A DNA stretch of 60,480 nt, the filler included, from Hausera hauseri (taxonomy: Eukaryota), in NCBI GenBank assembly GCA_046269625.1. It is 10 parts of 10 records of this genome, joined end to end, with 100 filler letters (N's around TTAATTAATTAA, not from the genome) between each part and the next. Parts side by side here need not be neighbours in the genome. Positions count along the whole stretch, not along the records: positions 22,916 to 30,789 come from JBJURY010899205.1; 9 more parts are not named here. The stretch is one strand, 5' to 3'. Within the stretch, counting starts at the first letter, position 1. Each line of letters begins with the position of its first letter. The translations under genes were made by a program, and so were the position numbers. The notes under the pieces were generated by a model. The model worked only from the letters and a program-made list of their open reading frames with translations, ran no database searches and had not been told where the DNA came from. Of this stretch, positions 5,081 through 56,421 are shown one piece after another.

Positions 5081-5180
5081 NNNNNNNNNNNNNNNNNNNN
5101 NNNNNNNNNNNNNNNNNNNNNNNNTTAATTAATTAANNNNNNNNNNNNNNNNNNNNNNNNNNNNNNNNNNNNNNNNNNNN
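5081..5180. other. Artificial contig linker
   Basis: N44-TTAATTAATTAA-N44 (stops in all six frames). Confidence 0.98.
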
Positions 5181-7354
5181 TGCTGTTTATGGACATTGTA
5201 ATGTTCCTCGTACCCTCTCCTGCACATTAACTCACATGTAGGGCATATATAATACTGAACCCTGTTGAACATATGCTCGAAGTATTTTATCATAATACTA
5301 TGGCAAATTGCCGGCTCATGGATTGGAGCCAAGCACTCTCTGTAAAGTTGTCACAAACAAACCAATTATTTGATGAGCACAAATAAGAAAAATTTACCAT
5401 TTCGTGGAAGTGAATTTGGAAATAATGAAAAATATAGCTATGTCAACTTACACTGTCTAATTTTGAAAATTGATGCAGTAAACCAATGCATATATACGGA
5501 AATTAATGGTGGGGTAAATGTGGCACTGCATATTGTTGCCCATATGTTGTCAACATCACGCGTTTGTTTTAATGCATCAAATGCATGGACTTGTCACGTA
5601 CTTATGACATTGCTTCTCATTGTTTGTTTTAATGCACCAAATATATATATATGTGTGACGGCGCAATATTCGGTTTTCATATATGCGGAATCGACTACAG
5701 CCATCTGATTCTTCGAATCATGCTTCCTACACCGATTATTCGAGTTCGAATCGATATTTCTTAGAGTTCGAATAATGTTTCGATCATCTGACACCAGATT
5801 CGGATTCTCCACATACGCTTTCGTATCCATGTGCGCTTAAAGATTTGTCGATTTCAATGTGCTTCACCTTCAAAATCACCTCTATTGCTTAATCAATATA
5901 AGAATCACTACATTTATTAAGCACTTTTAGCATATTTGAAAAACCTTGTTTTTTATACACTACACCGCATTGCACCGCACTAATCTTGTTGCCCATATAA
6001 GTTTTCAACCATGAGGAAAAGAATGCCGTCATTAGATTCTTTGAATAATGATTCCTTCGCCGAATATTCGAGTTCGAATAGCTAAATATTCAATTTGTAA
6101 GCTCGAATTCGATCATTTAACATCTTATTCCAGTTCAACATACATGACTTCCTATCCAGCCCCGCTATTAGATTTATCGATTTCCGCACCACTGAGCTTC
6201 AAATGCACATTTTGCTTATTTTGAAATATTGATTTTATGCCTATATAGTACATTTTCATGGAATAATTTTTATGTACGAAGGGGTTTTTATATAGGAAGA
6301 ATCGATTCGCACTGTTATATTTTTCGAATAGTTCGAACTTCGGTATTCGAGCTCGAAAAAATTCGAATTAGAGACTCGAGATTCGAGTTCGCCATAGCCG
6401 ATTTCCTATCTGTTTCCGCTCAATGTTATACTGAATTTTGCTTCCTTAGAGTCTAAAAAGCCTATTAAAAGTATAACCAATTTATACCTTGGATTGATAT
6501 TAATCGATAGCTAATCGATAAATTTAAATTCTAACTGCACATTTATATACTACACCATGTTTTCTTTCGAATGCATCAGGTCACATATCCTAATTATCTA
6601 TATTGGAAATATGGGAAATTGGATATTATTGATTTTTGCACACTTTCACACATGTTTTTGCACTGAACACCACATATAAAGGTGCATCTCAATGCGTCCT
6701 ATCCATTAGCACTTGACCCCAATTAATTCCATCACTCCTACGCTGCACAACTGCAAAAGTGTGCAAAGTGGAAAAGTGCTCTGGCAACCGTATCCAAGAG
6801 CACACCAATATCGAGTTTTGCGCTGATCGAAAGTACATCAAGTACTGCACCTGCGAGTATATGTGCCATATTGACATTATTGATTTAAAATTTATAGCGG
6901 AAAGGCCTGTGGTAGTTCGGTCCCACTTGCGAATTATTCGAAAACCAATCAATCGATTTAAATTCTAACTGCACATTCACATAGCCCATCATGTGTGCTA
7001 TCCATTTCACCCGCTGCCGAGTGCTAATCATCAATATTAGATTTATCGGAAATCTGATATTATTGAATTTTGCACACTTGCACATGTGCCGCACATTTTT
7101 CTGTGCACTAATCAATGCGTTCTGATGTGCACTATCGATTAGCACTTTGTCCCAATCGATTCGATCAATACTGCACTGTGCAACGATCGATTTGACAAAA
7201 GTTCAAAAATGTACGAAGCAACGGTGACTATTGGGACCGTTGCAAGTCACTCTATGGATCGATAGTGCTCCGGGTGCACTATTGATTGGCATATGTGCTA
7301 TATCGATTGGCACCCTCCCTGGAGATGGGACCGAACCGCCGTTTTCCTCCTACT
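5181..7354 (-). mobile_element. Polinton/adintovirus terminal region (long terminal repeat plus start of the Cys/His-pPolB ORF)
   Basis: The reverse complement begins AGTAGGAGGAAAACGGCGGTTC at 7354 and is colinear with 32503-34205. 5181-5360 encodes a homolog of ORF 34031 (HMFNRVQYYICPTCE). Confidence 0.8.
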
Positions 7355-9480: not shown

Positions 9481-9540
9481 ATTGAAATGGTGTTTGACTT
9501 TATTTATGAGAAATGCGCCATTATTCTTCGTATATATAGT

Positions 9541-12500
9541 GTGAGACAGAGAGAGAGATAGAGAGCGACAGCGAGAGACAGAGATAGAGAGAGAAAGAGA
9601 GAGTAACAGAGAAAGAGAGAAAGAGAGAGATAGAGATAGAGAGAAAGAGAGAAAGAGAGACAGAGACAGCGACAGGACAGAGAGAGACAGAGATAACGAG
9701 AGAGAGAGACAAAAGAAGAGAAACAGAGAGACAGAGACAGAGATACTGACAGTGACAGCGACAGAAACACACAGAGGCAAAGACAGAGAGAAACAGAGAG
9801 AGACAGAGAGTGAGACAGATAAAGACAGACAGAGAGAGAGCCATAGCGACAGAGACGGAGAGACACAGAGAGACAAAGAAAGACACAAAGAGACATAAAG
9901 AGAAAGAGAGCGACAGACAGAGAGAGAGACAGACACAGAGGCAGAGACAGAGAGACAGAGGGAGACACAGAGAAAGAGAGACAGACAGACTGAGAGACAG
10001 ACAGACAGAGATAGAAAAACAGACAGAAAAAACAGAGAAAGAGACAAAAAGAGATCGAGAGAGACAGAGAGAGACACAGATACAGACAAAGACAGAGACA
10101 GAGATATAGAGACAGAGACAGAGACATAGAGACAGAGACAGACAGAGAAAGAGACAGACACAGAGACAGACAGAGAACGAGTTNNNNNNNNNNNNNNNNN
10201 NNNNNNNNNNNNNNNNNNNNNNNNNNNNNNNNNNNNNNNNNNNNNNNNNNNNNNNNNNNNNNNNNNNNNNNNNNNNNNNNNNNNNNNNNNNNNNNNNNNN
10301 NNNNNNNNNNNNNNNNNNNNNNNNNNNNNNNNNNNNNNNNNNNNNNNNNNNGCGACACAGACAGAGAGAGACATAGAGACAGATAGATATAGAGAGAGCG
10401 AGACAGACAGACACAGAGAGAGAAAGACAGCGACAGAAACAGAGAGACAAAAAGACAGACAGGGACATAGAAAGACAGAGACAAAGGGCGACACAGAGAG
10501 AGACAGAGAGTCAGAAAGAGGTAGAGAGACAGAGGGAGACAGAGAGAAAGAGAGAGTCAGATAGACAGGCAGACAAACAGACAGAGGCAGACAGAGCGAG
10601 AGACAGAGGCAGACAGACAGCAAGATAGAGAGATAGAAACAAACAGAGAAAGAGACCCNNNNNNNNNNNNNNNNNNNNNNNNNNNNNNNNNNNNNNNNNN
10701 NNNNNNNNNNNNNNNNNNNNNNNNNNNNNNNNNNNNNNNNNNNNNNNNNNNNNNNNNNNNNNNNNNNNNNNNNNNNNNNNNNNNNNNNNNNNNNNNNNNN
10801 NNNNNNNNNNNNNNNNNNNNNNNNNNNNNNNNNNNNNNNNNNNNNNNNNNNNNNNNNTAGAGAGTGAGACAGAGACAGAGAGACAGAGACAAAGACAGCG
10901 ACGGAGAGACACAGAGCGAGGGACAAAGACAAAGACAGAGACAGAGAGACAGAGAGAGAGATAGAAAGACAGAGACAAAGACACAGAGACACAGACACAG
11001 ACACAGACAGAGAGACAGAGACATATAGAGAGAGAGACAGCAGACACAGAGAGACAGAGACAGACAAAAACAAAGAGAGAGACAGAGAGATATAGACAGA
11101 CAGATAGACAGAGACAGACAGAGAGACAGAAAGACCGAGAGACAGAGGCAGGGACAAAGAGACAGAGACAGAGAGACAAAGACAGAGACAGAGTCAGAGA
11201 TAGTGATAGGGAGGCGGAGAGAGAAACAGGGAGCCAGAGAGAGAGACACAGAGAGACAGACGGAGACAAACAGAGAGAGACAGAGAAAGAGAGAGAGAGA
11301 CAGAGAGATAGATAGAGGCAGTGAGAGGGAGAGAGACAGAGTGACAGAGAGACAGATAGACAGAAAGGCAGAGAGAGAGGCAGAAAAAGATAGACACAGA
11401 TATAGAAAGAGACAGAGAGAGAGACATAGGGCTACAGAGAAAGAGAGACAGAGACAGAGACAGAGACAGAAAAGAGAGAGACAGATAGAGACACATACAG
11501 AGACAGACAGACAGAGACAGAGAAAGACAGATAGCGACACAGAGAAAGAGGGACAGAGAGAGACAGAGAGCGAGAGAGGCTGAGAGAGACAGAGAGAAAG
11601 ACAGACATGGAGAGACAGGCAGATAGAGAGCGACAGACAGAAATAGAGAATCATAGCGACAGACAGACAGACAGACCGACAGACAGACAGACAGAGATAA
11701 AGAGAGAGAGAGAGGCAGACAAACAGACGGACAGAGACAGAGAAAGACACACAGACAAAGAGACAGAGTCAGGGAAACAGAGACGGAGAGACGGAGAGAG
11801 ACAAAGAGAGACAGAGAGAGACAGAGACAAAGACACACAGACAGAGAGAAACAGAAACAGAGAAAGAGAGGGACAGAGAAAACGACATAGCCAAAAACAG
11901 AGAGGCAGACAGAGAGATAGAAAGAGACAGAAACAGGTACATAGAGACAGACACAGACATAGACAGAGACAGAGCGAGACAGAGAGACAGAAAGACAGAG
12001 ACAGAGACATAAAAAAACAGAGAGAGAGAGACAGAGAAAGACAGAGAGAGGGACAGCGAGTGATAGAAACAGAGACANNNNNNNNNNNNNNNNNNNNNNN
12101 NNNNNNNNNNNNNNNNNNNNNNNNNNNNNNNNNNNNNNNNNNNNNNNNNNNNNNNNNNNNNNNNNNNNNNNNNNNNNNNNNNNNNNNNNNNNNNNNNNNN
12201 NNNNNNNNNNNNNNNNNNNNNNNNNNNGACAGACAAAGGTAGAGAGTCAGATACAGAGAGTCACAGCGATAGGCACAGAGACAGAGAGAGACACAGATAC
12301 AGCGAGACAGAAAAAGACAGAGACAGAAACAGAAAAAGACAGAAAAAGACACAGAGACCAACGGTGAGAGACAGAGACAGAGAGACAGAGATAGAGACAG
12401 CGATGCAGAGACAGAGACAGAGAAACAGACAGAGAGAGACATTGACATAGACAGATAGACAGAGAAAAAGAGAGAGACAGAGAGACAGAGACAGAGACAG

Positions 12501-25300: not shown

Positions 25301-27518
25301 TTTTGTCAGTTGTTTTGCAGGTCGGTTCATGGTTATATGGTGTAATGTTTTCGTCATAACCCTTTTTATTTGTAATACCTGATACATGGGATAAATTGCT
25401 CTGTGTTTCAAATATTGAGAAGCTGACGGATTCGCCATCACTTGCTCGTTATAGACTCGTCCGTACTCTGCTAAATCCAGTTGCGGTAAATCTGTTACCA
25501 ACCTCTGTTTGTATTTCTGTTTTCGTGGTTTCAATGAAAGACTTTTCCATCTCTTTATATATTTATCGCTTTTTGGCTTAATCTCAGGATCATCATCATC
25601 ATCGTTTTTGTCATTTATATTACTATATAGGGAATTCTTTTCATTTCTTTCTTTAAACATTTTCTTTTTCCATTGAGCATCATGTTTCGCTAGAAAACAA
25701 CTAGCTACGGCCGGTATTACTGCTATCAAAATCTTCCAAGAACAACCTACTGCTGCATGTATGCCATAAGCCTTACTGAGAGCAGTGAATATCGTTCGTA
25801 TCGCACCAATAATAAAATATATTGCGAGAAATCCTGAGGCCTCTTGGCCAAAATGAAGAAGTTTTCCCACATCTTTTCCATGACATTCTGTGTAACTTTC
25901 TCTAAATAATCTTTTCCCATCAGTTTTCCCATTGTGGTGAACCTTCACCGTCCCACGTCACCCTTGTTAATTCCGTTATTACTCTTTCTCTTTGTTGAGG
26001 AAATAACAGCATTCGTCGATAATCTTCTAAGTTCTGTTGTGTGTATATTCCTCCTTGAGATATCCCCGTAAGTGGTTCGAATTTCTGATTCCTTTGTAAA
26101 TTTATCAAACTTAACATTTCTGGTTTCGATACTGTTTCTCTTTTAGGCATCCTGATCCACGTCTTTTCATCTAGTTTGAACATGGGTGCCATGTTAAAGG
26201 TGCAGTTATCCAGCCGAACTGGTTTTACGTTGATATCTAATAATATCATAGTTACGGGCATAATATATCTAGGCTCGGTATGATAAATCATTGGTAACTC
26301 CGACGTGCATTCTTCCGTTGGGATTATCATAACCTCCACCTTTTTACATTAAATAGTTATGAGTACTTCACCCATTACTCTTTCGATTACTCCGTCTCCA
26401 AATGGCATTACTGGTGCTACCATATCAGGATTTGTTATTACTAACGCCATTTTGTTTCGTATAATTTCATAGTTCAACTTGAACTCGTTTATTATTATTT
26501 CCCTATATAAACTTCTAATTTCTCTTCTAACATAATTGATCAAAAAGTCAATATTGTTATCAAAATACTGCGTTATCTTTATATCCTTTTTATCTATCTT
26601 TGTTTTTGCTTGTACTATCTCTTTTGGTGAGAGATAGATACCTTTATAGTCTTAAATATTTCTTCATCGCACTTATTTACCGTTCCTGTAATTTTAAATC
26701 GCATGATCTCTTCGGGATTTTCCGAGTATACTACCGTTGCAACTTCCGTCATTTTTAGTTTTTTAATTCCCTCTTTATATGTTGTTGTTTCTCTCGGCTG
26801 TTTTTCCACTGTCTTATTAAATTTTCCTTCTTTTAGCAAGGTCAAATGACATATATTTGAAGTTACTTCCTACGTCACTTTGGATTCGCCAGTATCGCAT
26901 TCGCCAATTTCATATTCTCTCTCGCTCATTGTCGTCATGAGTTTGGTCTGTGAGTCGAATAATCCTTCGTATTCCTTTAATTGAATTTGATAATCTTGAA
27001 TCGCCACTGTTCTTGGTGCTATCGTTCCTCCTACATCGTAATATACCTCTTCAGGTGCCTTTCCTCGTTTTATCTATTCTTCCGGCTCTGAAGATTTGTG
27101 TATATTTTATCTTATTCCGTACTTCTGGTATTTGTGCATTTTGCATCGTTATAACTCAAATTTTAAAGGCATCTTGACATTCAGCACGTGATATTATTAT
27201 TGACTCGAACGGTGTTGTTGGTTCCACTATGACCGAGTTTACCGAATAGTATGCACAATTAAACAGGAAGAAAGATTTCTTGACGTAACATTCCCTGATC
27301 TTTACTTTTCTAAATTCAGACTCTTGGTAAATCCAATATCTATGACCGCTTGTCGTTGTTAGTTGTTCTGGGTCAGCTTCGGGGCATTTTTCTAAATCAA
27401 CTAAGGAATACTTCTGTCCTTCCTTAGGTTTCGAGCAATCGTATGCTACTATTCCCATTGCCTTCGGCATCAGCAACGATGTTATTAAAATTAATTGGAA
27501 GATCTCCATCATCGTCAT
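25280..27518 (-). pseudogene. env: Chuvirus-like (class III, gB-related) envelope glycoprotein
   Basis: Signal IFQLILITSLLMPKAMG, then IVAYDC..YSLVDLEKC..VKIREC..NC. Later blocks: ALVITNPD..VMGEVL..CKKVEV..EECTSELP, CTFNMAPMFKL..W, GGIYTQQNLEDYRRMLLFP, and a TM region FGQEASGFLAIYFII..YGIHAAVGCSWKILIA. The order matches chuviral G. Confidence 0.85.
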
Positions 27519-27593
27519 TCCCGTTATGCCTTATTTTAGTGTAGAGGTATTAGATTGTGCGGCGGTTTCTGCTGGTCCTCTATATCCTTTTGT

Positions 27594-28050
27594 TCATACA
27601 TTTTTCGTAAGACTTGCCAACCACCCGCCTCTACATTGGATCCAACTTTCTAGCCTATCCCTTAAAACTTTAATAGCTACTTTAATATTTCGTTCAATCT
27701 CTTCTAGGTTTTGGGTCTGATAATTAACTACGATCACTTTATATAGTAGGTAAGCTATGGATGTATGTTCTTTTTCACGCGTAATTCCTGTTGCGAACAT
27801 TTTTTCTAATATATTTTGCTCATGCAGTTCATTGATTCTTTTATCGTTGGTATTTTCATAAAATTACCTACTAATTCTTAACATATTACTCCGTAAGTTT
27901 TGAAAAAATTCCTCAGTGATCGTTACCTGCATGTCAAAAGATGCAAATGATGTGTGTAACTTTGCTAATAGCGTTATTAGTAATGGATCTATATCTACGT
28001 ACTCTGGAGATGGGTCTGTTCCTGCTAATAGCAGTCGCCGTACTATTTAT
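27594..28050 (-). pseudogene. Bcl-2-like domain (BH3/BH1/BH2) within the retroelement reading frame
   Basis: In one frame: LRSNMLRISR*FYE (BH3-like), ILEKMFATGITREK (BH1-like, cf. LFSAGITWGK), LRDRLESWIQCRGGWLA (BH2, cf. LHTWIQDNGGWD, 27621-27644). Confidence 0.65.
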
Positions 28051-28229
28051 TTGTTCCTATCTCGCCTATTCCGAATGTCACTTATCTATGTTCCTGTGAG
28101 TCTTTCCCTTCTTCTTGCCTTCGTCTGTACTGTGACATCCTGCGTATCACCTACAGGGTGCTGTTCTATGTCTTGGGATTCCATTTCCCTTATTATATTT
28201 CCTACTGTTTCCTCGGCTCTTGCATCTGC

Positions 28230-28463
28230 ATGTATTTCCGTTATCGTAATTGGGTTATACATTTCACTTTTACATCCGACTCTTAATAGATTATCGTAAC
28301 TGTATAATGTTCTGCCGTAGAAACTTAAAAAATGTGTCTTTTCTTTATAGAAGGGCTCTAGTTCCCCAATCTTTTCCCGTAATGTTAGTATATCATCTGT
28401 CTTATTCATCCTTATAACTCTCACATCTTGATTTCCTTCCCGCAATGTTATCCTTACCGTCAT
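28230..28463 (-). CDS. Ubiquitin-like domain within ORF 28086-29240 (Gag extension)
   Basis: VRITLRE-VRVIRM-NKTDDILTLREKIGELE-FLSFYGRTL-DNLLRVGCKSE aligns to ubiquitin (EPSDTIENVKAKIQDKE, RLIFAGKQL, RTLSDYNIQKE). No C-terminal GG. Confidence 0.65.
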
Positions 28464-29215
28464 ATTTCTTCCTTTTTCATCTTCGGCTGCTTTAGCTAGC
28501 ACTGTGCGCACTATTTCTCTCACTGGACTCGTATCGTGGGCAAGTAGTAATAGTTGAAACAAAATCTCGTCCAGTTTCTGTGTCGATATTTTGTTATAAA
28601 TTAACTTAAATATTGTAGTAGTTGTCCTATCTACGTCAACTATGTTTTCCAGATCAACTGTCATTTCTGATTGAATAATGTTATCCTCCTTGTCCATATC
28701 TACACCCGTGCCTCGTATCACTTGTTCCAATATTGTTTCGTCAAATACTTTCACAGTTTGGTCTTCCTCTGTTTCTGTTGCAGATGTGCTTAGGCTACTC
28801 TTGGGTGTACTGAGATTACTCGTCCTTCGTCCTTTCTTTTCTTTTTCCTTTTCTAGTTCACTACTATCTACGGAGGTTTCTCTTGATTCGATATCATCAG
28901 TTATTTTTTGATTACTTTTCTTTCCTCCTTGTCGTGGTTTTCTGCCTTTTGTTTTCTCTTCCACTACATAAATACTATTTTCCTTTAATCTCTTCTGCTG
29001 AGTTTTATAATCTTTTAGCTCCATGTGTAACTGAGTTAACATACGTTGAGATAATATATCATTAACATAATTTACGCTTTCCTTCTTATTCTTCCTTTCA
29101 TGTTCAATATTACTTTCTTCTGTTTCATACTTTTGATCGGATGACTCGTCCGCCGTGGCTGACCTATAGTCCTTTTTATTTTGCTTATAAGGCTTTGAGG
29201 ATTCTCTTTTACGTG

Positions 29216-30045
29216 ATTTGCATGGTTTTGCTGTGACCATATTTGTTACAATTAAAACATTTTAACCTTCCTTCAGCATCTATATTAGGTAATTTTCTTT
29301 TATATTTTAGGGAAGACTTCTTTTTACTCCTTGCTTTTTCATAATCGTTCTTTAATTTAAACCTAACCTTCTTTTCCACATCAGATTCTGCTTTTGTAGC
29401 CGACGTATGGGATGGACTTCTGTTTCTGTCATAACGTTTGTATTTTTGCGTATTATCATTCTTTTATTTATCGTAATTACTATAACTTTTAGGTTTGTTC
29501 CATCTATATAATTTAGCACCCCGTTCGGCTTTTCCCGCCGTCCTTATAATGTCTTAAAACGTAAGTAGATCTGTTTGCAAGATTATCGTTCGTAACTTTT
29601 CTTCCAACCCATATTGGAATTGGGTTAATAATGCATTATTTCTTATTGTAACATAAGAATATGCTATGACTGCTAACTTCTCCAATGTACAGACAAAATC
29701 TTGGACTGATTCATCTTTGCGTTGCCTCCTTCTTATATATTGTTCTATTCTCGCCTTTCCAGAGGTATCTATCAAGAATTTCAGAGGCAGTTTTTCTTTT
29801 ATTCCTTTTCAATCCTTCTTATCCTCGTCGGGAATTTGGAAATAAATTGTCAAAGCAGTCCCCTTTAAGTGAAGAGGCACTATTTCTGTTCGTTGTTGGT
29901 CCTCCAACCAAAACTCTGAGTCCACTTCATACTCCATAATAAAATCTTGCACATCCTCCTTACCTGAGGACTTCTTCATCGGCAAGGTGACGTCAGCTTT
30001 TGACTGAATCACCTGCTCTACTATATTAGCGTTCTGATTTGCCAT
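29216..30045 (-). pseudogene. gag: Gypsy Gag (capsid plus CCHC zinc knuckle)
   Basis: SGKEDVQDFIMEYE..W..VPLHLKGTALTIY, RRQRKDESVQDFVCTLEKLA..LLTQFQYGL, KCFNCNKYGH/xAKPC (the knuckle is split by a frameshift at about 29232). Confidence 0.88.
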
Positions 30046-30789
30046 TTCTTCTTCGCTTAGATTATTTAAAAACTCTAGTCCAAAAGGTTGTTCTTCTGTA
30101 TTACGATTTATCTGATACTGGGTACATCTTCTTGTCGTAATTTTGAGTTCTTCTTTTTGTCTGGTTCTCTAAAGTGAATTTTTATCCCTGAATTTTAACC
30201 AACCATGACGAAATACACGCATTTACCACTACTATAATACAAGACATCATATATTATTAACTTTTGTATAGTTGTTTAATAAAAGTATTTTTGTTAAAAG
30301 TTTTACCAAGTTTCATAAAGCTTTGTCAAGGTTCAATGCAACAGAAACTTTATTGGTCAGAACTATTTATGGAAACGAATTCTACTGTAAATAGTCAGAG
30401 GGATGCAAAATATAATGCTGATTAATTTCGAACAAATGATAATTCGCAACTAGCCATATGAACTTCGATTAAATTTTGTTCAGTTCCCGTTAATTATGCT
30501 TGGAGAGAGACTTTTATTTATTGACTTAATCGCATTAATGGGTTGAACAATGGAATACCCAATATTGTACTTGCGTATATGTAGATATTCAGACAGGTAA
30601 ATTCGTTACCTAGCCTTATCCTATAAGGTAATATGTCGGAGTCGTCTGCCAACGAGGCTTAATTACGCGTTAATTACTAATTATTTGGCACTCTTTAAAT
30701 TATACGGGCTGTCGTCAGGTAGGTTCGACCTGGTCGGCAATTTTTCCAAATTACTCAAGTTCTTTATTCAGTTACTTATGTTACTTAGA

Positions 30790-30889
30790 NNNNNNNNNNN
30801 NNNNNNNNNNNNNNNNNNNNNNNNNNNNNNNNNTTAATTAATTAANNNNNNNNNNNNNNNNNNNNNNNNNNNNNNNNNNNNNNNNNNNN
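30790..30889. other. Artificial contig linker
   Basis: N44-TTAATTAATTAA-N44. Confidence 0.98.
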
Positions 30890-30906
30890 AGAATTCTTAG
30901 CTAAAA

Positions 30907-32247
30907 ATGAAAATGTTATTTTATTTCATGTCAATTTTATTTGATTGTTCAATTTGTTTACAACCAATCAGTGAGTCCGATATTGGACTAATTGAATCAT
31001 GTGGTCATTATTTTTGTCTGGATTGTATTTGTGAATGGTTATCAAAAAATCAGACATGCCCACACGACCGTAACCCTGTAGATAACATATCATGTGTCAA
31101 TAATCGAAATAAACGACTGTGGGTAAAACCAATAAGTTATGCCTTAATCGAACGAATATCATGGTACATATATACATTTCTCAAGGATTTGATCGAAACT
31201 GCAATGCAGATCGGCGAGTCAACATCAAAAATGATTCACACCTTTAACGAATTAGAAGAAAATCTCAAAAAATGTCAACCATTGGGTGAAATAGAACAGT
31301 CAATAAAAAATACAGATGTAACTATGAGAATTATACTCAAACATTGTGAATCCATAATCGATCATTTTAACACAAAAACCGTCGTCATAGCAACACAATT
31401 TATTGAGAATTTCAATCTTCCATTCGAAACTGTAACCAATCCAATCCCGTCATCATTGGAGGCATTGAAGAAGTGTGTAATGAGCATATGGACGTTAATC
31501 AATACATTTGGATCGATGAATTTGAGTCAAATTTTCCCATCATGTAATATGGTGAAGGATGTTTTAGTCGAATGTCGAAATCATTTGAAAATGAATGAAA
31601 ATTTGATGAGACAATTGCTGCACAAAATTTTATCCGAAATTGACTGTAACGGTTCATTTCAACTACCAGAAACAGCCAATCAATGTCATTTCTGTGATGG
31701 AATTAACAAAGGATCATTGCAGAATTATGTTCAATTACTTTGTGAACAATGTCATGAATAATTAGTCAAATATGATGAAATTAGTCAAACGAGTTATTCG
31801 ATGAAAGCAATTGAAATTTGTTCACAAAATAGTTCATGTTGTTCTGTGGATAATTTGAAGAAGATTCGTAAAATTGATAAATCATTAGTAGAAGATAAAA
31901 ATGACATCCAATTCAAACAAGTCCTTATCAAACCGAAAAGTTCGTTAGTTCAAACATGTCAAGAGTATTTAAAAAATTTATTCAAATTAAACTCGTTCGT
32001 GTCTCTCATTTCTGTGGATATTGAACGATTTCCCGATCGACACCAAATTTCAGATTCTTTCCGGAATTTTCTGATCTATACTGAGAAAACATTGGAGAAA
32101 TTTCTGGACTTTCATGTTGGTATTTTGAGGAGAGAACCAATTGTCATTGGTGATATTTGTGACTGGATTGATTCGATTTGTCAATTGTGTAATGACATCA
32201 AAGATACGAATGAAGGTATTGTCTTTATGAGCAATGAAATTCGGTAG
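30907..32247 (+). pseudogene. RING-finger protein (PHRF1/SCAF11-type RING) with an in-frame stop at 31759
   Basis: CSICLQP..ESCGHYFCLDCICEW..QTCPHDR, followed by a helical region and CHFC..LLCEQC. ORF 31801-32247 is in the same frame. Confidence 0.7.
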
Positions 32248-32502: not shown

Positions 32503-35140
32503 AGTAGTGTGAATATGGCGGTTCTGCCCCATCCCCGGGGGGGTGCAAATCGATATTGCACATGTGCCAATCGATAGTGTACACGGTGCACTATCGATTT
32601 ATATAGTGCCGCTAGGCACCGTTGATATGCACATTTTTGCACTTTTCACATATCGATCGTTGCACAGTGCAGTATTAATCGAATCGATTGGGACAAAGTG
32701 GCAATCGATGGAGCACATCGAGATGCATCGATTGGTGCACTGTGCATGTGTGCAGCATAAGTGCAAGTGTGCAGAAATCAATAATATTGGATCTATGATA
32801 TTTCAAAAATAGATGATTAGCACTCGTGATCGGGTGCACTCGGTAGCACACATGACTGGCCATGTGAATGTGCAGTTAGAATTTAAATTTATCGATTAGT
32901 TATCAAATAATGTCGATCGAAATTGCAAATTGGTCATACGTTCAACATGTTTTTTAAGCTTAGGGTAGCAAAATTCAAACCAACATTGAGCGGGGACAGA
33001 TAGGAAATCCACAATGCCGAACTCGAATCTCGAGTCGAAAACTCAAAATTCGAATTTTTCGAGTTCGAAAATCGAAGTTCGAACAATTAAAAAAATCTGA
33101 CGATGGGAATCGATTCCTCATATTCGAAAACCCCCATGTGCATAAAAATTATTCCATGAAAATGTACTATATATGCATAAAATCAATATTGTGAAATAAA
33201 CAAAATGTGCGTTTGAAGCCCATTGGAGGGGAAACTGATAACTCTAATAGCGGGACTGGATAGGAAGTCATGTATGTTGAGCAGGAATATGTTGTTAGAT
33301 GATGGAATTCGAGCTTACAAGTCAAATATTTAGCTATTCAAACTCGAAAACTCGGTCACGTGAGCATTATTCGAAGAATCTAATGACGGTATTCGATTCC
33401 CCATGGTCGAAAACTTATATAGCAAACAATACAAGTGCGGTGCAGTGCTATGCAGTGTATAAAAACAAGGTATTTACGAATCAGCTAAAAGTTCTTATTA
33501 AATGCAAAGTCATTTATATATTGATTAAGGAATAGAGGTGATTTTGAAGGTGAATCACATTAAAATCGATAAATCTTTAAGCGCACATGGATAGGAAAGC
33601 CTATGTGGAGAATCTGAATATGATGTTAGATATTCGAAAACATTATTCGAACTAGAAGAAATATCGAATCGAACTCGAATATTCGATCAAGCAAGCAATA
33701 TTCAAAGAATATGATGACGGTATTCAAATCCCCATGGTCGAAAACTGAATATTTCGCCGCAATACATTTAAATCATTTGATTCATTAAAACAAACGAATA
33801 ATATTGATAATACAACATGTTGGCAACAATATGCGGTGACAAATGTACCCCACCATTCAAATGATTTCCATACATGTGTTTTTGTTTTGTTACATCAAAT
33901 ATCAAAATTAGACAGTGCATGCTGACATAGCTATATTTTTCATCATTTCCAAATTCACTTCTAAAATCACTTCCGAGAATGGTAAGTTTTTTCTTATTTT
34001 TGTCTTTATTAAATAATTGCTTTTTTTTAGATGTGCAAACTGTATCAAGAATGTCTGGCTCCAATTTATGAGCCAGAAACCTGCCATAGTACCATGATGA
34101 AATACTATGGCCACATGTTTAACAGAATCCAATATTATATATGCCCTATATGTGAGGTAGGGTGCAGGACAGGGTACGAGGAATTCTACAATGTACATAA
34201 ACGACACTTGATATTGTTCGTCAAATCGAAAAAAGAAATATTCTATAACAATATGCCAACAACGTCTATTATGTCAAAAGAAAACCAAAGGTGCAGTTCA
34301 TATATGTATTGCACATGTACAATACATAGCCCCGAGAATTGCCACAATACCATGAGGATGTATTATGGCCACAAATTCAATCGGATCCTTTATTATATAT
34401 GCCCAGGATGTGAGACTGTATGTAATGGCGACTACATGCAGCTCTATGAGGATCATAAGCAACATCTGACTGACTTTGCATCAAAGTCCAAGAAGATCAT
34501 ATTTAATGAGCATAAACCAGTTGCACAGTCCGCAGTACAGCTCGCAGGACTAAAACGCCCATAAGGTCCATCAAATGCCTCAGGCTCAACATGTGTAGTG
34601 GCTCCTCCAAAAAGCCAAAGACAGTGGTCAGTTGATGCTTCTGCATTAAAGGATAAAGTCCGCAAATATGTCATTGATGCAGCTGGACAAAGAACCATCA
34701 AGGACTTCCTGGAATATGCAAAGGAAGAAACAGAGGGGATCCTGCAGGAAAATATGACTGAGTTCAAGGCCCTTAAGGTTTATGTGAAACTTGAGGCCAC
34801 ATACGTCAATGTCGATGCTGAAGAATCAAATAGGGTCTTCAAGACCAAAAATAGGCCAATATTGGAAAGCACAAATATACCTGAATGGCTACATGAAAAG
34901 CATACGAAGCTGATCCGTGAAGCCGATGAGAGTCAGGATAAGAAGTGCGGATGGGCTCTGGCAACAATAAAGAGACTGCTTATATATGTACACAGATACT
35001 TCCCCATGCGAGGCAGTTCATATATCCAACTTCCGGAATGGATCACTAATAAAAAGGTATGTGTCAATGTCCAAAATAATAATGACAACATGTGCTTTAT
35101 GTATGCCATTTTATGTAAACTTGTAACGGATCAAAAGCAT
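32503..35140 (+). mobile_element. Polinton/adintovirus end: terminal repeat plus pPolB 5' region
   Basis: Starts AGTAGTGTGAATATGGCGGTTC. The first ~1 kb is shared with the copies starting at 7354(-) and 42166(+). A pPolB N-terminus follows. Confidence 0.85.
34031..35140 (+). pseudogene. polB: Protein-primed DNA polymerase B N-terminal region with a duplicated Cys/His domain, truncated
   Basis: ORFs 34031 and 34598 are in the same frame, separated by one TAA. CGWALATIKRLLIYVHRYFPMRGSSYIQLPEWITNKKVCVNVQNNNDNMCFMYAIL is the characteristic GSGW..PLRGSSY..LP..KK..N..N.D..CF block of Polinton pPolB. Confidence 0.85.
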
Positions 35141-35285
35141 GCTTGTGGTGCCCACATTGCCCCACACAAAAGTAGCAGTATTGCTTTTACGTCACGACTT
35201 TGTCATACCGGAGTAGTAGGATAGGAGTGCATGGCGCCAAGCCCCCCCCCCGCGGAAAGAAAGCATTAAGCGTGGGAAAATTTTT

Positions 35286-35385
35286 NNNNNNNNNNNNNNN
35301 NNNNNNNNNNNNNNNNNNNNNNNNNNNNNTTAATTAATTAANNNNNNNNNNNNNNNNNNNNNNNNNNNNNNNNNNNNNNNNNNNN
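35286..35385. other. Artificial contig linker
   Basis: N44-TTAATTAATTAA-N44. Confidence 0.98.
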
Positions 35386-40099: not shown

Positions 40100-40199
40100 N
40101 NNNNNNNNNNNNNNNNNNNNNNNNNNNNNNNNNNNNNNNNNNNTTAATTAATTAANNNNNNNNNNNNNNNNNNNNNNNNNNNNNNNNNNNNNNNNNNNN
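40100..40199. other. Artificial contig linker
   Basis: N44-TTAATTAATTAA-N44. Confidence 0.98.
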
Positions 40200-42165: not shown

Positions 42166-44459
42166 AGTAGGGGAAAAATGCGGGTTCTCCCTCACCCACG
42201 GGGTGTGCGCGTCGATAAATCTATAGTGCACATGTACCAATCGATAGTGCACATGGTGCGCTATCGATTGGTGGTGTACCAGGCAACGATGCTGCTAGGC
42301 CGCGTTGCTAAGGGCACTTTTGCACATTTCACAAATCGATCGCTTCATAGTGCAGTATTGATCGAATCGATCGGGACAAAACGCTAATCGATAGTGCACA
42401 TAAGTGCGCTTCGACTAGTGCACAGTGCAGGTGTGCAGCACATGTGAAAGTGTGAAAAGATAAATAATATCGGATTTCCGATATTCCCAATATTGATTAT
42501 TGTGGCACGGCACCGGGTGCAATCGGAAGCATACATGATGCACTGTGTGCATGTGCAGTTAGAATTTGAATATATTGATTGGCTTTTGAATAATTGCCAA
42601 CTGAGGGAGAACCCGCATAGGCCTTTCCGGTATAAATTGAAAATGAATAATATCAATATGGCACATATACTGGCGGGTGTAGTACTTGATGTACTATCGT
42701 TCAGTGCAATACTCGAGTCAGGAGTGATCTTGGATACGGTTGCCAAGGCACTTTTTCACTTTTCACATTTGGGTCATTGTGCAGCGTAGGATTGACGGAA
42801 TCGATCGGGGTCAAGTGCAGATAGGTAGAGCACATCGAGATGCATTTTTATGTATACTGTGCAGTGCAAAAACACGTGTGCAAGTATGCAAAAATCAATA
42901 ATATCGAATTTCCGATATTTCCAATATTGATGATTGGGATATGTGATCGGGTGCAATCGATTGGAAACAAGGTGCAGTATATGAATGTGCAGTTAGAATT
43001 TAAATTTATCGAGCCGATTTCGAATAATATCGATCTATAGTGCAACTGGGACAGACTCCCCATAGGTTTTTTAGGCCCTAAGGAAGCAAAATTCAACATT
43101 ATAATTAGCGGGGACAGATAGGAAATCGAGTATGGCGATCTGGAATCTCGAGTCAGATATTCGAAATTCTAATATTTTCGAGCTCAAATATCGAATATCG
43201 AACTATGCGAAAAATCTAACAGCGGTAATCGATTCCTCATATATGAAAACCCCCTTATACATAAAAATTATTCCGTGAAAATGTACTATATAGACCCAAT
43301 ATCAATATTTTGAATTAAGTAAAATCTGCATTTAAAGCTCAGTAAAGCGGAAATCAATAAATCTAATAGCGGTGCGGGATAGAAATTCATGTATGTTGAA
43401 TCGGAATATGGCATCAGGTATTCGAATTCGAGCTTACATGTCGAATACTTAGCTATTCGAACTGTAATATTCGGTCAAGCATCCATTATTCGAAGAATCT
43501 AATGCAGCCATTCGATTCTCCATGGTTGAAAACCTATTTGAATTTGGCGCTGCCAGGTATTTAATTTAATTGATGCATTAAAACAAAAGCACATTAAACT
43601 TTGGTGCATAAACAAGTGCTAAATATAGAACATGACATACATAATGGACAACAAACCAATAACTGATATGAAAAAACAGGATAATGAGTACTTTGAAGAT
43701 GTTACAGAATATACATGTATTCAATTGGATACAGCTAATCGGATTGAAGATACTGAATTCTTCGAGGACTGCTGCGAAGATTGTTGACGCAGTGAATGTG
43801 GCTATGACGAAATTAAAATCGATATTATCGAAGAAGAAGAAGAGGAGGAGGGTGATATACAGGATTGATCATGTATAGGTCGTATAGCTTATTATTGTTG
43901 TCATGTTAATAAATTTGTTGTTGTATACACACGTGTTGCTTTTTTTGAAGAGACATAAATCGATAATAATATATTATTTAAAACACAACTAACAAAATCA
44001 CTATAATTCAAATTCTTTAAACCGGTAATAACAGTTATACCCATATGAAACACATTTACACATAGAGGATTATAGCAAGTCAGTCTAAAGGCAGGAAATA
44101 ATTCTGGTTCATAGAGACTTCAATTATTCCGAGCCAATGTGTTTAAATCTATTGGTTCGCCAAAATCACATCACTGTAATTGATTGTATTCCCACTATTG
44201 ATATATTGTAGGGCAAACTGCATGGCTCAATGTGCTTTTTACATTCCCTTATTCGGGATTTTCCACTGGGGAAGAATACAGTCGTATATTCGGGGTATCG
44301 TAAAACACACTGTTTAGGTCTACATCTGTATTTGAATTCATCCAAGGGAGCTGTAGTGAAACCTCTGTAGTTGATGTTGCTCAGAATATTTGTAAAAATG
44401 AAAGGTACATTTCCAACTGACTTGTCACATTCAAATTGAACAAATACGATTGGCTGACA
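42166..44459 (+). mobile_element. Polinton/adintovirus end: terminal repeat (42166 to about 43540) plus a subterminal TBP-like gene
   Basis: Starts AGTAGGGGAAAAATGCGGGTTC and is homologous to the 32503 and 7354(-) copies up to about 43540, then diverges. Confidence 0.75.
43960..44459 (-). pseudogene. Divergent TATA-binding protein (TBP)-like gene, not in the ORF track
   Basis: Manual translation: LSNINYRG..RPKQCVLRYPEYTTVFFPSGKSRI (repeat 1), IVGIQSITVM/DFGEPIDLNTLARNN*SLYEPELFPAFRLTCYNPLCVNVFHMGITVITGLK (repeat 2, cf. IQNMVGSCDVKFPIRLEGL..YEPELFPGLIYRM..LLIFVSGKVVLTGAK). One frameshift near 44168 and one stop. Confidence 0.8.
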
Positions 44460-44559
44460 NNNNNNNNNNNNNNNNNNNNNNNNNNNNNNNNNNNNNNNNN
44501 NNNTTAATTAATTAANNNNNNNNNNNNNNNNNNNNNNNNNNNNNNNNNNNNNNNNNNNN
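44460..44559. other. Artificial contig linker
   Basis: N44-TTAATTAATTAA-N44. Confidence 0.98.
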
Positions 44560-49189: not shown

Positions 49190-51711
49190 TCTGACCCCGT
49201 AATCATCAGTTGGAGAAAGGCGCTTACTTCATTCTCAGTTTTCTCCGTTTCTGGAGTAACGAGAATAAGTTAACGCACTCAAAATTTTCCGCGATTCTTC
49301 ACAACATCCTCTCAAAGTCTCTCGGCAATAATTTATTCGGCAATAGAAAGAGCAAACATTTGAGATGTGTCGACGAGACCGGCGTCGATTTTATCAACAA
49401 GGACGATCCAGTGGGGAAAACACTTTAGATGTGGCAAAATGCAACAAACAGTATTCGGACATTAAGACACAGGTGGATAAGACTCTTATTGCCGGTTTTC
49501 GCCCACTAATGCAGCCACTTTTTGCGCTTATGCAGGTCTCTTCTGGCTAACACCATTTTTATTTTAAAGGTTTTTTAAGCTTAATGTCTTTGGATACCCC
49601 TTTATCCCAATCATCACTAGCCACTGCTACCCTAGATGCACGCCCGTACTTCTTGTTATCACAGAAGGAAACTGCCCAAGCTTCCAATGCATTTCACCAT
49701 TCCATTGGGATCATTTCGCTGCAAGTCTCCTTCATAGTCTTCAGCAATAATCAACACATTAAAACCATTAGAGCTCCCCTCGACGCCACGGCGCAGCTCC
49801 TATACACCTCTTTATCCTCCTCACTCAACACTTCTAACTTTTATTTCACACACCGAGGCATCACTGTACATCCTATCAACTCACTCCTATCTTTTGTCTA
49901 CCATGAACGTCCAGTCATTTATCTCATGCTCCATTTTCGCCTTTATGGTGGATCGGACTCAAACCCATATTTCTCGGATGACAAATCCACAAATACAGGC
50001 AACGTCTATCGTTTGCCACATTCCCAACAGTCACAAGGGTCATTAAATTTACCTTGTGTGGAATTTGTCCTCCACAAAAACAACTCCAGCAAACCATGGC
50101 TCCAATTCCACCAACAGTGACTAAAATCGAACAACAACACTGATTCTTTTGTGCGAACAAATAGCCTCTTAATTCTTCTGCCTGCAAACGTCAAGCAGCA
50201 GATTAATAATATCTCCGAGCTGCTACAATCCTCGACACTCTGTAAAGCTGTACTGCATGTCTCGGATCCTTCGATTGACAATATAATACAAAAGTACTTT
50301 AATGACCACGCGATACTAAGCCAAAAGCCATACGACTTTCTCCAAACGGCCATTCTGAAGCTCAGCGCGCTAGAAGTGACACGTACGAATAACGCGGATT
50401 TAATTCGCCGTTATTTCTTATCGCCTTTGCCCACATCAATTAGAGCCTTACTCACCCTTGTCGTCAAGCAGACGTAAAGCTGCGGAACAGGAATTTAATG
50501 AACTGGAAAGGTCTGGCATCATTCCGAGATCGAATTCGACGTGGGCTTCTTCTCTTCATATAGTGGTAAAGAAAGATGGTACGTATATGCCATGTGGCGA
50601 CTATCGACAATTAAACAATCTAACTATTACAGATGCCTATCCACTACCACTCATTAAAGCCATTCTTCATAGCCTCAACAACACCAATACCTATTCTACC
50701 ATTGATCTGCACAAAGCCTACCATAAAATTCCTGTTGTCCCTGATGACATTCCAAAAAACTGTTGTCATCACACCATTTGGCCTTTACAAATACATCTGC
50801 ATGCCTTTCGGCCTACGTAGTGCATTTCAGACCTTTCAGTGTCACATTGACACCGTTCTCTCAGGTTTTGATTTTGTTCACCCATACATAGATGACAAAT
50901 TAGTCGCTTCCAACTCCATCAAACGACATCATGAGCACCTTAGAATTATTTTCCACACATTGCATCAAAGCAACCTGCAAATAAATTTCGCCAAATGCAA
51001 TTTCTTCCAGAAAGACGTCAACTTCTTAGACCACATAATTATTCTCAAAGGCATTTGCCCCAGCCTGATCGCTTACAACAATTAAAAAATGTGACGTTAC
51101 CAACTACTACTACGGATATTAGGTATTTTCTAGGGACATTGCATTTCTTACGCAAATATGTGCCACATTGCACCGAGCTAACGGCACCTTTCGCACACTT
51201 CTCATCCGGGAAGAACAGACAATTAATCCATTGGACTCCCGATTTAGTAAATCAAATTGATCGCCTTCGTGAAAATCTAAATATAGTTGAAATCTTGGCT
51301 TTTCGAAAACCAAACGCGGAACTGATATTAACTACCGATGCCTCAACCACAGCCACTGGTGCAATATTACACCAAATATACAATGGTGTTGACGAGCCAT
51401 AGGAATTCTATTCCCGAAATTTCAAGTAACCGGAGAGCCGATAATCAACATTCAATCATAAACTCTTGGCTGTAGTTCTAGCGGTAAAGCATTTCAAGCA
51501 TTTGCTTCTTTCACGTCAATTTACTATCCAAACCGACCATAAGCTTCTACTTCACATAATGACTTTGAAACAGCCCTCATTCAGGCAAGAACGACAGATA
51601 TCATACATATCGACGTTTAGTTTTTCCATGAAATATATTTTAGGCACCAAAAATTTAGTAGCGGATTTTCTTTCGCGGTCGGTTAACTCAATTACAGTTC
51701 AGCCAATTTTC
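49190..51711 (+). mobile_element. CsRn1-like Ty3/Gypsy element: Ubl-gag, internal deletion of protease, RT, RNase H
   Basis: Gag is homologous to ORF 11-814. RT: KAAEQEFNELERSGII..STWASSLHIVVKKDGTYMPCGDYRQLN, TPFGLY..MPFGLR, YIDD. RNase H: LTTDASTTATGAIL, QTDHK. A possible remnant tRNA-Trp PBS, TGACCCCG, lies at 49192. Confidence 0.9.
49584..50477 (+). pseudogene. gag: Ubiquitin-like domain (49716-49952, ends LHFRLYGG) fused to Gag
   Basis: Same architecture as ORF 11-814. One in-frame TGA at 50118 replaces a Trp. Confidence 0.72.
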
Positions 51712-51811
51712 NNNNNNNNNNNNNNNNNNNNNNNNNNNNNNNNNNNNNNNNNNNNTTAATTAATTAANNNNNNNNNNNNNNNNNNNNNNNNNNNNNNNNN
51801 NNNNNNNNNNN
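51712..51811. other. Artificial contig linker
   Basis: N44-TTAATTAATTAA-N44. Confidence 0.98.
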
Positions 51812-52805
51812 TCTATAAATCGATATTATACATATGCTAGTCGATACTGCCCCCCGGTGCACTATCAATCGGTAAATGTGCATGGCACCGTGTCAGTTCG
51901 ATTGGAAGAACGCTACTCTGTACAAGTGTGCAATTAGAATTTAAATCGATCGAATGGTTTTCAGTAGGTAGAAGTGAGCTATCCACCGCACTTCTCTGAT
52001 TGGTCCGCCGACCAGTTTATCTCACCTTATTGGCTATTCTGAACATTTCACTAAAATTTTTCCACGACCCCTTTTCAGAAAATGAGGTCGAGCAAAGAGG
52101 ATCGGACCAGGTGATATCGATAGCGCGTGACGAGATGAGCAAAAGTTAATGGAGGTGCGGCTTAGAGAAATGTAAGGGAGATGCGCTAGAAGAGGAAGAA
52201 GCAAAACAGGAAATGCTCCACGTGTAAGGCGAAACATGTTGCTAGCACTGAGAAAATGTGTACAAGGGGTAAATCGATATTGGCAATTGCAATGGGCACT
52301 GTTGCAAGTCGGTCAGACCATGGGAACATGGGGAAAAATCGATGAGAAAATTTCAAACTAATAAAATTTCCACATGTTCAAGTCCGCCGGTGATGGAAAT
52401 TGGTCTAATACATTGCCCATAAGTTAGGGAAATTTTCATATTACAGCCGCGTCACTATCAGACCAATGAATGCGGGTGAAAAATGCAATCGAACGAACGA
52501 ACGGAAAAACGCATTGTTAAAAAGTCAAAATCATCATGGTTATAAATGCGTTCGTTTTGTAGAAAAATCGTGAATTTTATTTTGTACGACGACGCACAAA
52601 TTACCACGAGCTCATAAATGAGTACTACTATTACTCACTAGGTGGCGGCAATCTGCCTACAAACTAATGAGTACCACCAAATGTGTAACAGAGATATTGA
52701 AATGATATAACGACAGCAACAACAATATAACAAGTTGTATACTTCAAAATCACAAAAACAGTATGTCTGCCCATTAAAAAATGCGGAATACGTTCATAAT
52801 AATGT

Positions 52806-56321: not shown

Positions 56322-56421
56322 NNNNNNNNNNNNNNNNNNNNNNNNNNNNNNNNNNNNNNNNNNNNTTAATTAATTAANNNNNNNNNNNNNNNNNNNNNNN
56401 NNNNNNNNNNNNNNNNNNNNN
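56322..56421. other. Artificial contig linker
   Basis: N44-TTAATTAATTAA-N44. Confidence 0.98.

Follow-up and report, generated by a model that had tools for sequence, protein, structure and literature searches.

The window, a stretch of 60,480 nucleotides from Hausera hauseri, is a chain of separate pieces joined by nine identical linkers of the form N44-12nt-N44 (5081-5180, 17066-17165, 22816-22915, 30790-30889, 35286-35385, 40100-40199, 44460-44559, 51712-51811 and 56322-56421), and neighbours across a linker are not neighbours in the genome. The piece from 22916 to 30789 (7.9 kb) carries a Ty3/gypsy element that exists in many copies and has the order Gag-Env-Pol; this genomic copy is broken, and the Bcl-2-like domain reported here is encoded on the minus strand. 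A single minus-strand frame specifies Gag, a charged spacer, a ubiquitin-like domain (UBL), the Bcl-2-like domain, an internal signal sequence and a class III fusion glycoprotein, after which come the protease (PR), the reverse transcriptase (RT) and RNase H. The piece stops inside the integrase (IN) and the element is cut at both piece ends, so its LTRs lie outside the view. The copy is dead: several frameshifts are present, and a count over 2,047 codons gave 15 stops. The domain order was derived from Pfam searches with 18 ORFs or read-throughs and from tblastn searches with natural homologs. One of these, P0004, was the only protein found at E<=0.001 (E 7e-49) when 1.84 billion representatives were searched with HMMER; it is an uninterrupted protein of 1,130 amino acids, encoded by one ORF of a single ENA record, and contains Gag, a CCHC knuckle, a spacer, a ubiquitin-like domain, a Bcl-2-like domain, a hydrophobic segment and the glycoprotein in this order.

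All features of the element lie on the minus strand. The 5' non-coding part (30170-30789), presumably an LTR end or leader cut by the end of the piece, lacks a long ORF and is overlaid by contigs from other copies. It is followed by a broken Gag capsid domain (29524-29991), which is 43% identical to residues 19-178 of P0004 and matches Pfam Retrotrans_gag with E 0.0075; the Gag region of P0004 matches the dArc2 capsid (E 0.007). The remnant of a CCHC zinc knuckle (29230-29262; zf-CCHC, E 0.006) is complete in P0004 (E 2.5e-4). The charged spacer and a short helical region (28473-29229) are in an open frame, with 391 stop-free codons from 29261, and are 23-24% identical to P0004. The ubiquitin-like domain (28239-28472) matches Pfam ubiquitin with E 0.045 in the window and 0.031 in P0004, both under the cut-off; the RAD23A UBL is among its PDB matches (E 0.44), and a low-confidence model displays a beta-beta-alpha-beta pattern. 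The Bcl-2-like domain of about 150 amino acids (27597-28046), which was detected in Pfam, PDB, NCBIfam and Foldseek searches and is 40% identical to residues 601-756 of P0004, has stops before it (28047-28049), inside it (27864-27866) and after it (27594-27596). The internal signal sequence of the glycoprotein (27453-27524) contains a hydrophobic segment at 27512-27471 and ends at a predicted signal peptidase site. Along the frame, identity between the window and P0004 is 24% in the spacer, 35% in the UBL, 40% in the Bcl-2-like domain, 4% (1/23) in the linker behind it and 59% at the N-terminus of the glycoprotein.

The glycoprotein itself (25580-27452), of the Monjiviricetes/HSV gB type, is interrupted by stops and frameshifts and is 30-36% identical to a second homolog, P0005; Pfam PF24664 was matched in four separate ORFs of this region (E 1e-21 to 1e-7). 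The class III env is thus placed between Gag and PR. The pol region of Ty3/gypsy type comprises PR, RT and RNase H in this order, namely an aspartic protease with an LDTGS motif (24987-25277), which aligns to P0005 from residue 1136 onward, and an RT with a YIDD motif together with RNase H (23129-24860; RVT_1, E 1.3e-24), 49% identical to P0005 and 51% to P0009. The stretch 22916-23128 is assigned to the start of the integrase region by position only, as the integrase comes next in P0005.

P0005 and P0009 are among 54 proteins returned by a search with the long read-through. In a quick RT tree built from 45 of these 54 proteins and the window, the window, P0005 and P0009 form one clade (SH-aLRT 99). 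P0005 is a protein of 2,855 amino acids with an uninterrupted succession of glycoprotein, protease, RT, RNase H and integrase, and is 36% identical to the glycoprotein of P0004. A QxQT..GRPK motif is common to P0004 and P0005, and the glycoprotein begins 224 residues beyond it in P0004 and 117 residues beyond it in P0005. From its first methionine onward, no Bcl-2-like domain was found in P0005 ahead of the glycoprotein; as the protein is nevertheless uninterrupted, the domain appears dispensable for the clade. P0009 contains ankyrin repeats, extra proteases and a C-terminal hydrophobic segment. The absence of the domain from P0005 and the ankyrin repeats of P0009 argue that the module is cargo of part of a clade that is prone to extra domains. 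P0005 further carries three protease-like domains, C2H2-like fingers and a C-terminal membrane protein beyond the integrase, and a weak Macro domain was seen in P0049, another of the proteins.

Several other features were observed in the window. The 3' half of another gypsy element lies at 17166-22815 on the minus strand, with RNase H and an integrase that is 49% identical to P0005 and P0009; behind it lie three ORFs (258, 171 and 134 amino acids), one of them with a hydrophobic segment; these ORFs gave no convincing Pfam match and none to the C-terminal parts of P0005 or P0009. A degenerate RT/RNase H fragment on the plus strand (50431-51696) is 31-42% identical to P0005. Also on the plus strand, a RING-finger ORF of 286 amino acids (30901-32247; zf-RING_2, E 9e-10) is followed in frame, past one stop, by an ORF of 161 amino acids without a clear family. 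Members of a dispersed repeat family, 70-85% alike and in both orientations, occupy 5645-7308, 32547-33803, 42217-43596 and 51817-51962, and by one of these copies lie a Cys-rich ORF with an internal repeat (34031-34564) and an ORF of 219 amino acids (34565-35224), for which no clear Pfam family was found. The region 9500-17000 is a long purine-rich satellite of short units with assembly gaps and an AT skew of about 0.85.

In the initial annotation, the Bcl-2-like domain was recognized by three motifs. Read directly in translation, these lie in the claimed order and places in one minus-strand frame: a BH3-like LRSNMLRISR (27896-27867) followed by a stop (27866-27864), a BH1-like ILEKMFATGITREK (27812-27771), aligned to the BH1 of BAX in the PDB search, and a BH2-like LESWIQCRGGWLA (27653-27615). 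Their likeness to the canonical motifs, however, holds for one of the three. The BH2 pattern WxxxxGGW, here of the form WxxCRGGW, is found both in the window (WIQCRGGW) and in P0004 (WVKCRGGW); a BH2-type pattern, picked post hoc, has one occurrence in the six-frame translation of the window and none in 300 base shuffles of the 7.9-kb piece. A canonical BH3 motif has a G-D core, and direct reading found no such core in the BH3-like helix of the window or of P0004. The BH1 region reads GITREK in the window and GISRNK in P0004, and the NWGR signature is absent from both; the replacement of NWGR by [ST]R[NE]K depends on a register set by eye, and the PDB alignment places BH1 one residue off. It was described that the Gly and Arg of NWGR matter for BH3 binding and that an altered BH1 lowered the affinity of ORFV125 about 250-fold (PMC9027176), and poxviral Bcl-2 proteins without an intact NWGR are described to still bind BH3 motifs (PMC8310162). 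The BH3 and BH1 signatures of the domain are degenerate, so that an anti-death role is putative.

The Bcl-2-family origin of the domain was assessed with several libraries. In the Bcl-2 profile search that had been proposed with the initial annotation, the X read-through matched positions 7-100 of the 100-position profile PF00452 with E 6.6e-4, a match below the cut-off. The stop-free ORF of 89 amino acids, one of the two matching among the 18 proteins scanned, gave E 2e-4, and P0004 gave E 0.055; the profile is spanned from 6/7 to 100 of 100 in the window and P0004, two sequences 40% alike. The corresponding bit scores are 22.3 for the 89-residue ORF, 20.6 for the read-through and 14.5 for P0004, against a curated cut-off of 31.4, and the domain is therefore filed as Bcl-2-like and not as a typed member. 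In a PDB sequence search (E<=10), 12 of 13 matches belong to the Bcl-2 family (11 BAX, one Bcl-xL), with a best E of 0.15. The NCBIfam model bcl-2 TIGR00865 matched the window ORF with E 0.0033; a bacteriocin model scored slightly better (E 0.0015). AlphaFold models reached a pLDDT of 36 and 49, the latter for a two-sequence model of poor confidence, which is all-helical with seven helices. A Foldseek search of 350,542 chains listed 38 rows, all of them from the Bcl-2 family and with alignments of 124-164 columns; the best E is 0.22, none of the chains matched the modelled domain at E<=0.001, and Foldseek uses sequence too, so that this result is not independent of the PDB search. P0004 retrieved no Bcl-2 chain from the PDB at E<=1 and zero matches in NCBIfam, two-sequence profiles retrieved no Bcl-2 chain at E<=10, the Atlas search gave no Bcl-2 match, and no host Bcl-2 was found at E<=0.001 by HMMER among the 1.84 billion representatives. 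Thus, no test passes a curated threshold, and the likeness is weak in each test but consistent across the Pfam, PDB, NCBIfam and Foldseek results, which support the proposed origin; with the published precedent of the planarian element Burro counted, a Bcl-2 origin of the domain is very probable.

The domain is cargo of the element and not a stray insertion. The claim that it is element-borne and conserved is borne out by the uninterrupted homolog P0004, by many copies in one public sequencing run and by a bias towards third codon positions. In this run (X1), 20,547 contig records align to the piece, most of them less than 95% alike, and cover 30/30 bins; 992 records lie over 27400-28120 with a dip across the linker, and one contig joins 27453 to 27671. 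Of the five stops in the Bcl-2-like region, four are at sites where 95-100% of the aligned depth differs from the window copy, and the fifth lies at the margin of the linker, where coverage is poor. Among 26 domain sites, taken from a listing of 40 of the 86 variant sites in this one run and scored by codon position, not by synonymy, 7/7 mixed sites (share <0.80) and 3/19 near-fixed sites fall on third positions (Fisher p 2e-4); at a share of 0.85, the numbers are 8/11 and 2/15 (p 0.004). Among the same 40 of 86 variant sites listed, none falls in the W, C, R, G, G and W codons of the BH2 motif. The codon-position bias, together with the 40% identity of the domain to P0004 against 24% in the spacer and 4% in the linker, indicates amino-acid constraint on the domain among copies.

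A hydrophobic segment about 35 codons downstream had been read both as the signal peptide of the glycoprotein and as a Bcl-2 tail anchor. Its distance is 32 residues from the last BH2 tryptophan in the window and 36 in P0004, and its role as a glycoprotein signal stands. In the window, P0004 and P0005, a hydrophobic core precedes [IT][IVT]AYDCS, with Pro at -5 and a small residue at both -3 and -1, an arrangement that marks a signal peptidase site. The glycoprotein that follows in the window aligns to the Pfam model Monjiviricetes_fusion from its first position on (E 1.8e-13). A captured Bcl-2 tail was considered and rejected for this segment: the same signal-type segment precedes the glycoprotein of P0005, where a Bcl-2 domain is lacking, and the linker leading to it is 4% identical between the window and P0004. 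Because P0005 has it without the domain, the segment belongs to Env. The hydropathy profile contains one segment ahead of the ectodomain and one anchor behind it, and a single polyprotein would pass twice through the ER membrane, with Gag-UBL-Bcl-2 in the cytosol, Env in the lumen and Pol in the cytosol. Judged from hydropathy and the signal pattern, membrane anchoring after signal cleavage, as initially suggested, is a workable topology, and its site would be the ER rather than the mitochondrion.

The initial annotation regarded Bcl-2 mimics as untypical of retroelements, which is contradicted by the planarian element Burro, in which a BCL2-like motif is described at the same position (PMC6431247, crediting Grohme et al. 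2018). Burro/GYPSM1 are giant gypsy-like LTR elements with a polyprotein of 4,873-5,140 amino acids, containing Gag, MATH, BIR and ankyrin domains, a Ubi2/SUMO-like and then a BCL2-like motif, and an Env between BCL2 and PR that matches mononegavirus fusion proteins; the BIR is an apoptosis-inhibitor domain (PMC6431247). The cargo was found by domain search only and is termed worthy of experimental confirmation there. BURRO1 becomes expressed when PIWI is lost, and RNAi against it failed to rescue the PIWI-loss phenotype (PMC8532177); in the parts of the literature on planarian elements consulted, no experimental test of the Burro Bcl-2-like domain was found. The window element shares with Burro a single polyprotein beginning with Gag and CCHC and the order UBL, BCL2-like, in-frame Env, PR and RT. 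However, it is about half as long, with about 2,400 codons up to where the piece ends and perhaps 2,700 in all by estimate, it has one knuckle, in P0004 the Env signal begins at residue 784, and Pfam found no MATH/TRAF, BIR, ankyrin or midasin-like domain between Gag and Env in the window or P0004. Pfam also gave no dUTPase match in the ORF 24135-24860 or in P0005; the dUTPase-like domain of Burro, in the PR-RT interval, came from HHpred. The comparison with Burro was made against its published description. By size and cargo, the element is Burro-like and not Burro in the strict sense.

Ty3/gypsy pol with a class III Env between gag and pol is also described for GAG-ENV-POL errantiviruses with HSV/gB-type ENV in Platyhelminthes, Nematoda and Bryozoa (PMC13524379). 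By eye, the six Schmidtea ENV rows given there share the motifs YQES[DE], C.GE.Y, ELREY and TNY.G with the window Env, whereas the nine bryozoan and nine nematode rows displayed lack them, and from this likeness of Env a flatworm host is likely; the terms Bcl, apoptosis and ubiquitin have 0 occurrences in the main text and no relevant one in the seven supplements (text, not figures; long cells in part). Anakin, a Pao element with a chuvirus glycoprotein, is likewise an LTR element with a mononegavirus-type glycoprotein, but belongs to Bel/Pao, is found in mosquitoes and has no such cargo in the portion of PMC7642597 examined; for arthropods, the account in PMC10084718 reports no capture of such glycoproteins by Gypsy elements. 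With the viral Bcl-2 proteins of large DNA viruses, such as KsBcl-2 and ORFV125, the domain shares its divergence and its place in a parasite genome, and with the poxviral members an altered BH1 (PMC9027176, PMC8310162). While those are described as stand-alone genes with their own anchor, the window domain, known from sequence, is part of a polyprotein and predicted to borrow the Env signal.

We give about an even chance to the explanation that the polyprotein carries, besides its ubiquitin-like domain, a diverged domain of probable Bcl-2 origin that is held at the cytosolic side of the ER membrane and acts as a decoy promoting survival of the cell that produces the element. One polyprotein would be translated, consistent with the single ORF from Gag to Env in P0004 and from Env to integrase in P0005. 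The internal signal would thread Env into the ER and be cut at its end by signal peptidase, and the membrane anchor of Env would bring PR-RT-IN back to the cytosol. The Gag-UBL-Bcl-2 part would stay attached to the membrane through the spent signal, which follows BH2 at a distance of 32-36 residues, with one Bcl-2 domain per Gag, and the domain may be released from Gag by the protease of the element. It could then bind host pro-death BH3 proteins via a non-canonical groove and damp the cell death arising from heavy ER load, cDNA and integrase breaks.

An unlikely explanation, if the most serious of the alternatives, accepts the same element and Bcl-2 origin and holds that the fold was repurposed, either as an adaptor blocking innate immunity or as a membrane module that links Gag to Env for assembly and replaces a matrix domain. 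Poxviruses have Bcl-2-fold immune inhibitors. In both natural sequences, BH3 and BH1 are degenerate and the fold core and BH2 are kept, and the 1:1 fusion to Gag and the position adjoining the Env signal would suit such a module, as would the ankyrin repeats of P0009 and the MATH/TRAF and ankyrin domains of Burro (PMC6431247). However, the uninterrupted Env-Pol frame of P0005 without such a domain makes an essential role in assembly unlikely, and the BIR described for Burro points to cell death as the target (PMC6431247). A pro-death effector of the Bax/Bak/Bok type, which permeabilises membranes or kills the producing cell to release particles, is improbable: the top sequence matches are to BAX (11/13), BAK and BOK entries are among the fold matches and the BH1 and BH2 stretches presumably resemble Bok, but an element with an Env would more likely leave its host cell by budding than by lysis, most listed fold matches are to BCL-2/Bcl-xL, though these are over-represented in the PDB, and the scores cannot rank subfamilies. 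About as little credit can be given to an unrelated helical domain whose chance likeness to Bcl-2 is driven by the one WxxxxGGW motif. Every score is under its curated cut-off, the P0004, Atlas and two-sequence-profile searches yielded no Bcl-2 chain and the models are of low confidence; against this stand the nearly complete Pfam span in two diverged sequences, the Bcl-2 family consistently among the top ranks in three libraries and the BCL2-like motif that related elements are described to carry in this position (PMC6431247). Finally, a neutral host fragment in a single dead copy, to which the denser stops in the Bcl-2-like region and linkers (27531-28088; 5/186 codons against 10/1861 elsewhere, p 0.008, in a region chosen post hoc) might point, is largely refuted and very improbable, since the domain is in frame and uninterrupted in P0004, 992 contig records come from other copies, third positions are favoured and four of the five stops are private to the window copy.

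Under the pro-survival explanation, the finding could reach further. It is possible, if on the doubtful side, that purifying selection maintains a functional viral Bcl-2 in an enveloped flatworm retroelement lineage, 1:1 with Gag and anchored by the spent Env signal; no reverse-transcribing element would have had a functional inhibitor of cell death described before, and this would be a minimal UBL-Bcl-2 module that predates or outlives the giant cargo of Burro and was gained or lost as a unit among sisters. New here are a compact element in which the UBL and the Bcl-2-like domain are the only cargo detected, evidence of amino-acid constraint among its copies and a sister polyprotein that lacks the Bcl-2-like domain. 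In flatworms, the probable host group, stem-cell turnover depends on apoptosis, and with these findings the question of whether host cell death is controlled by a retroelement, as it is by large DNA viruses, becomes a practical one.
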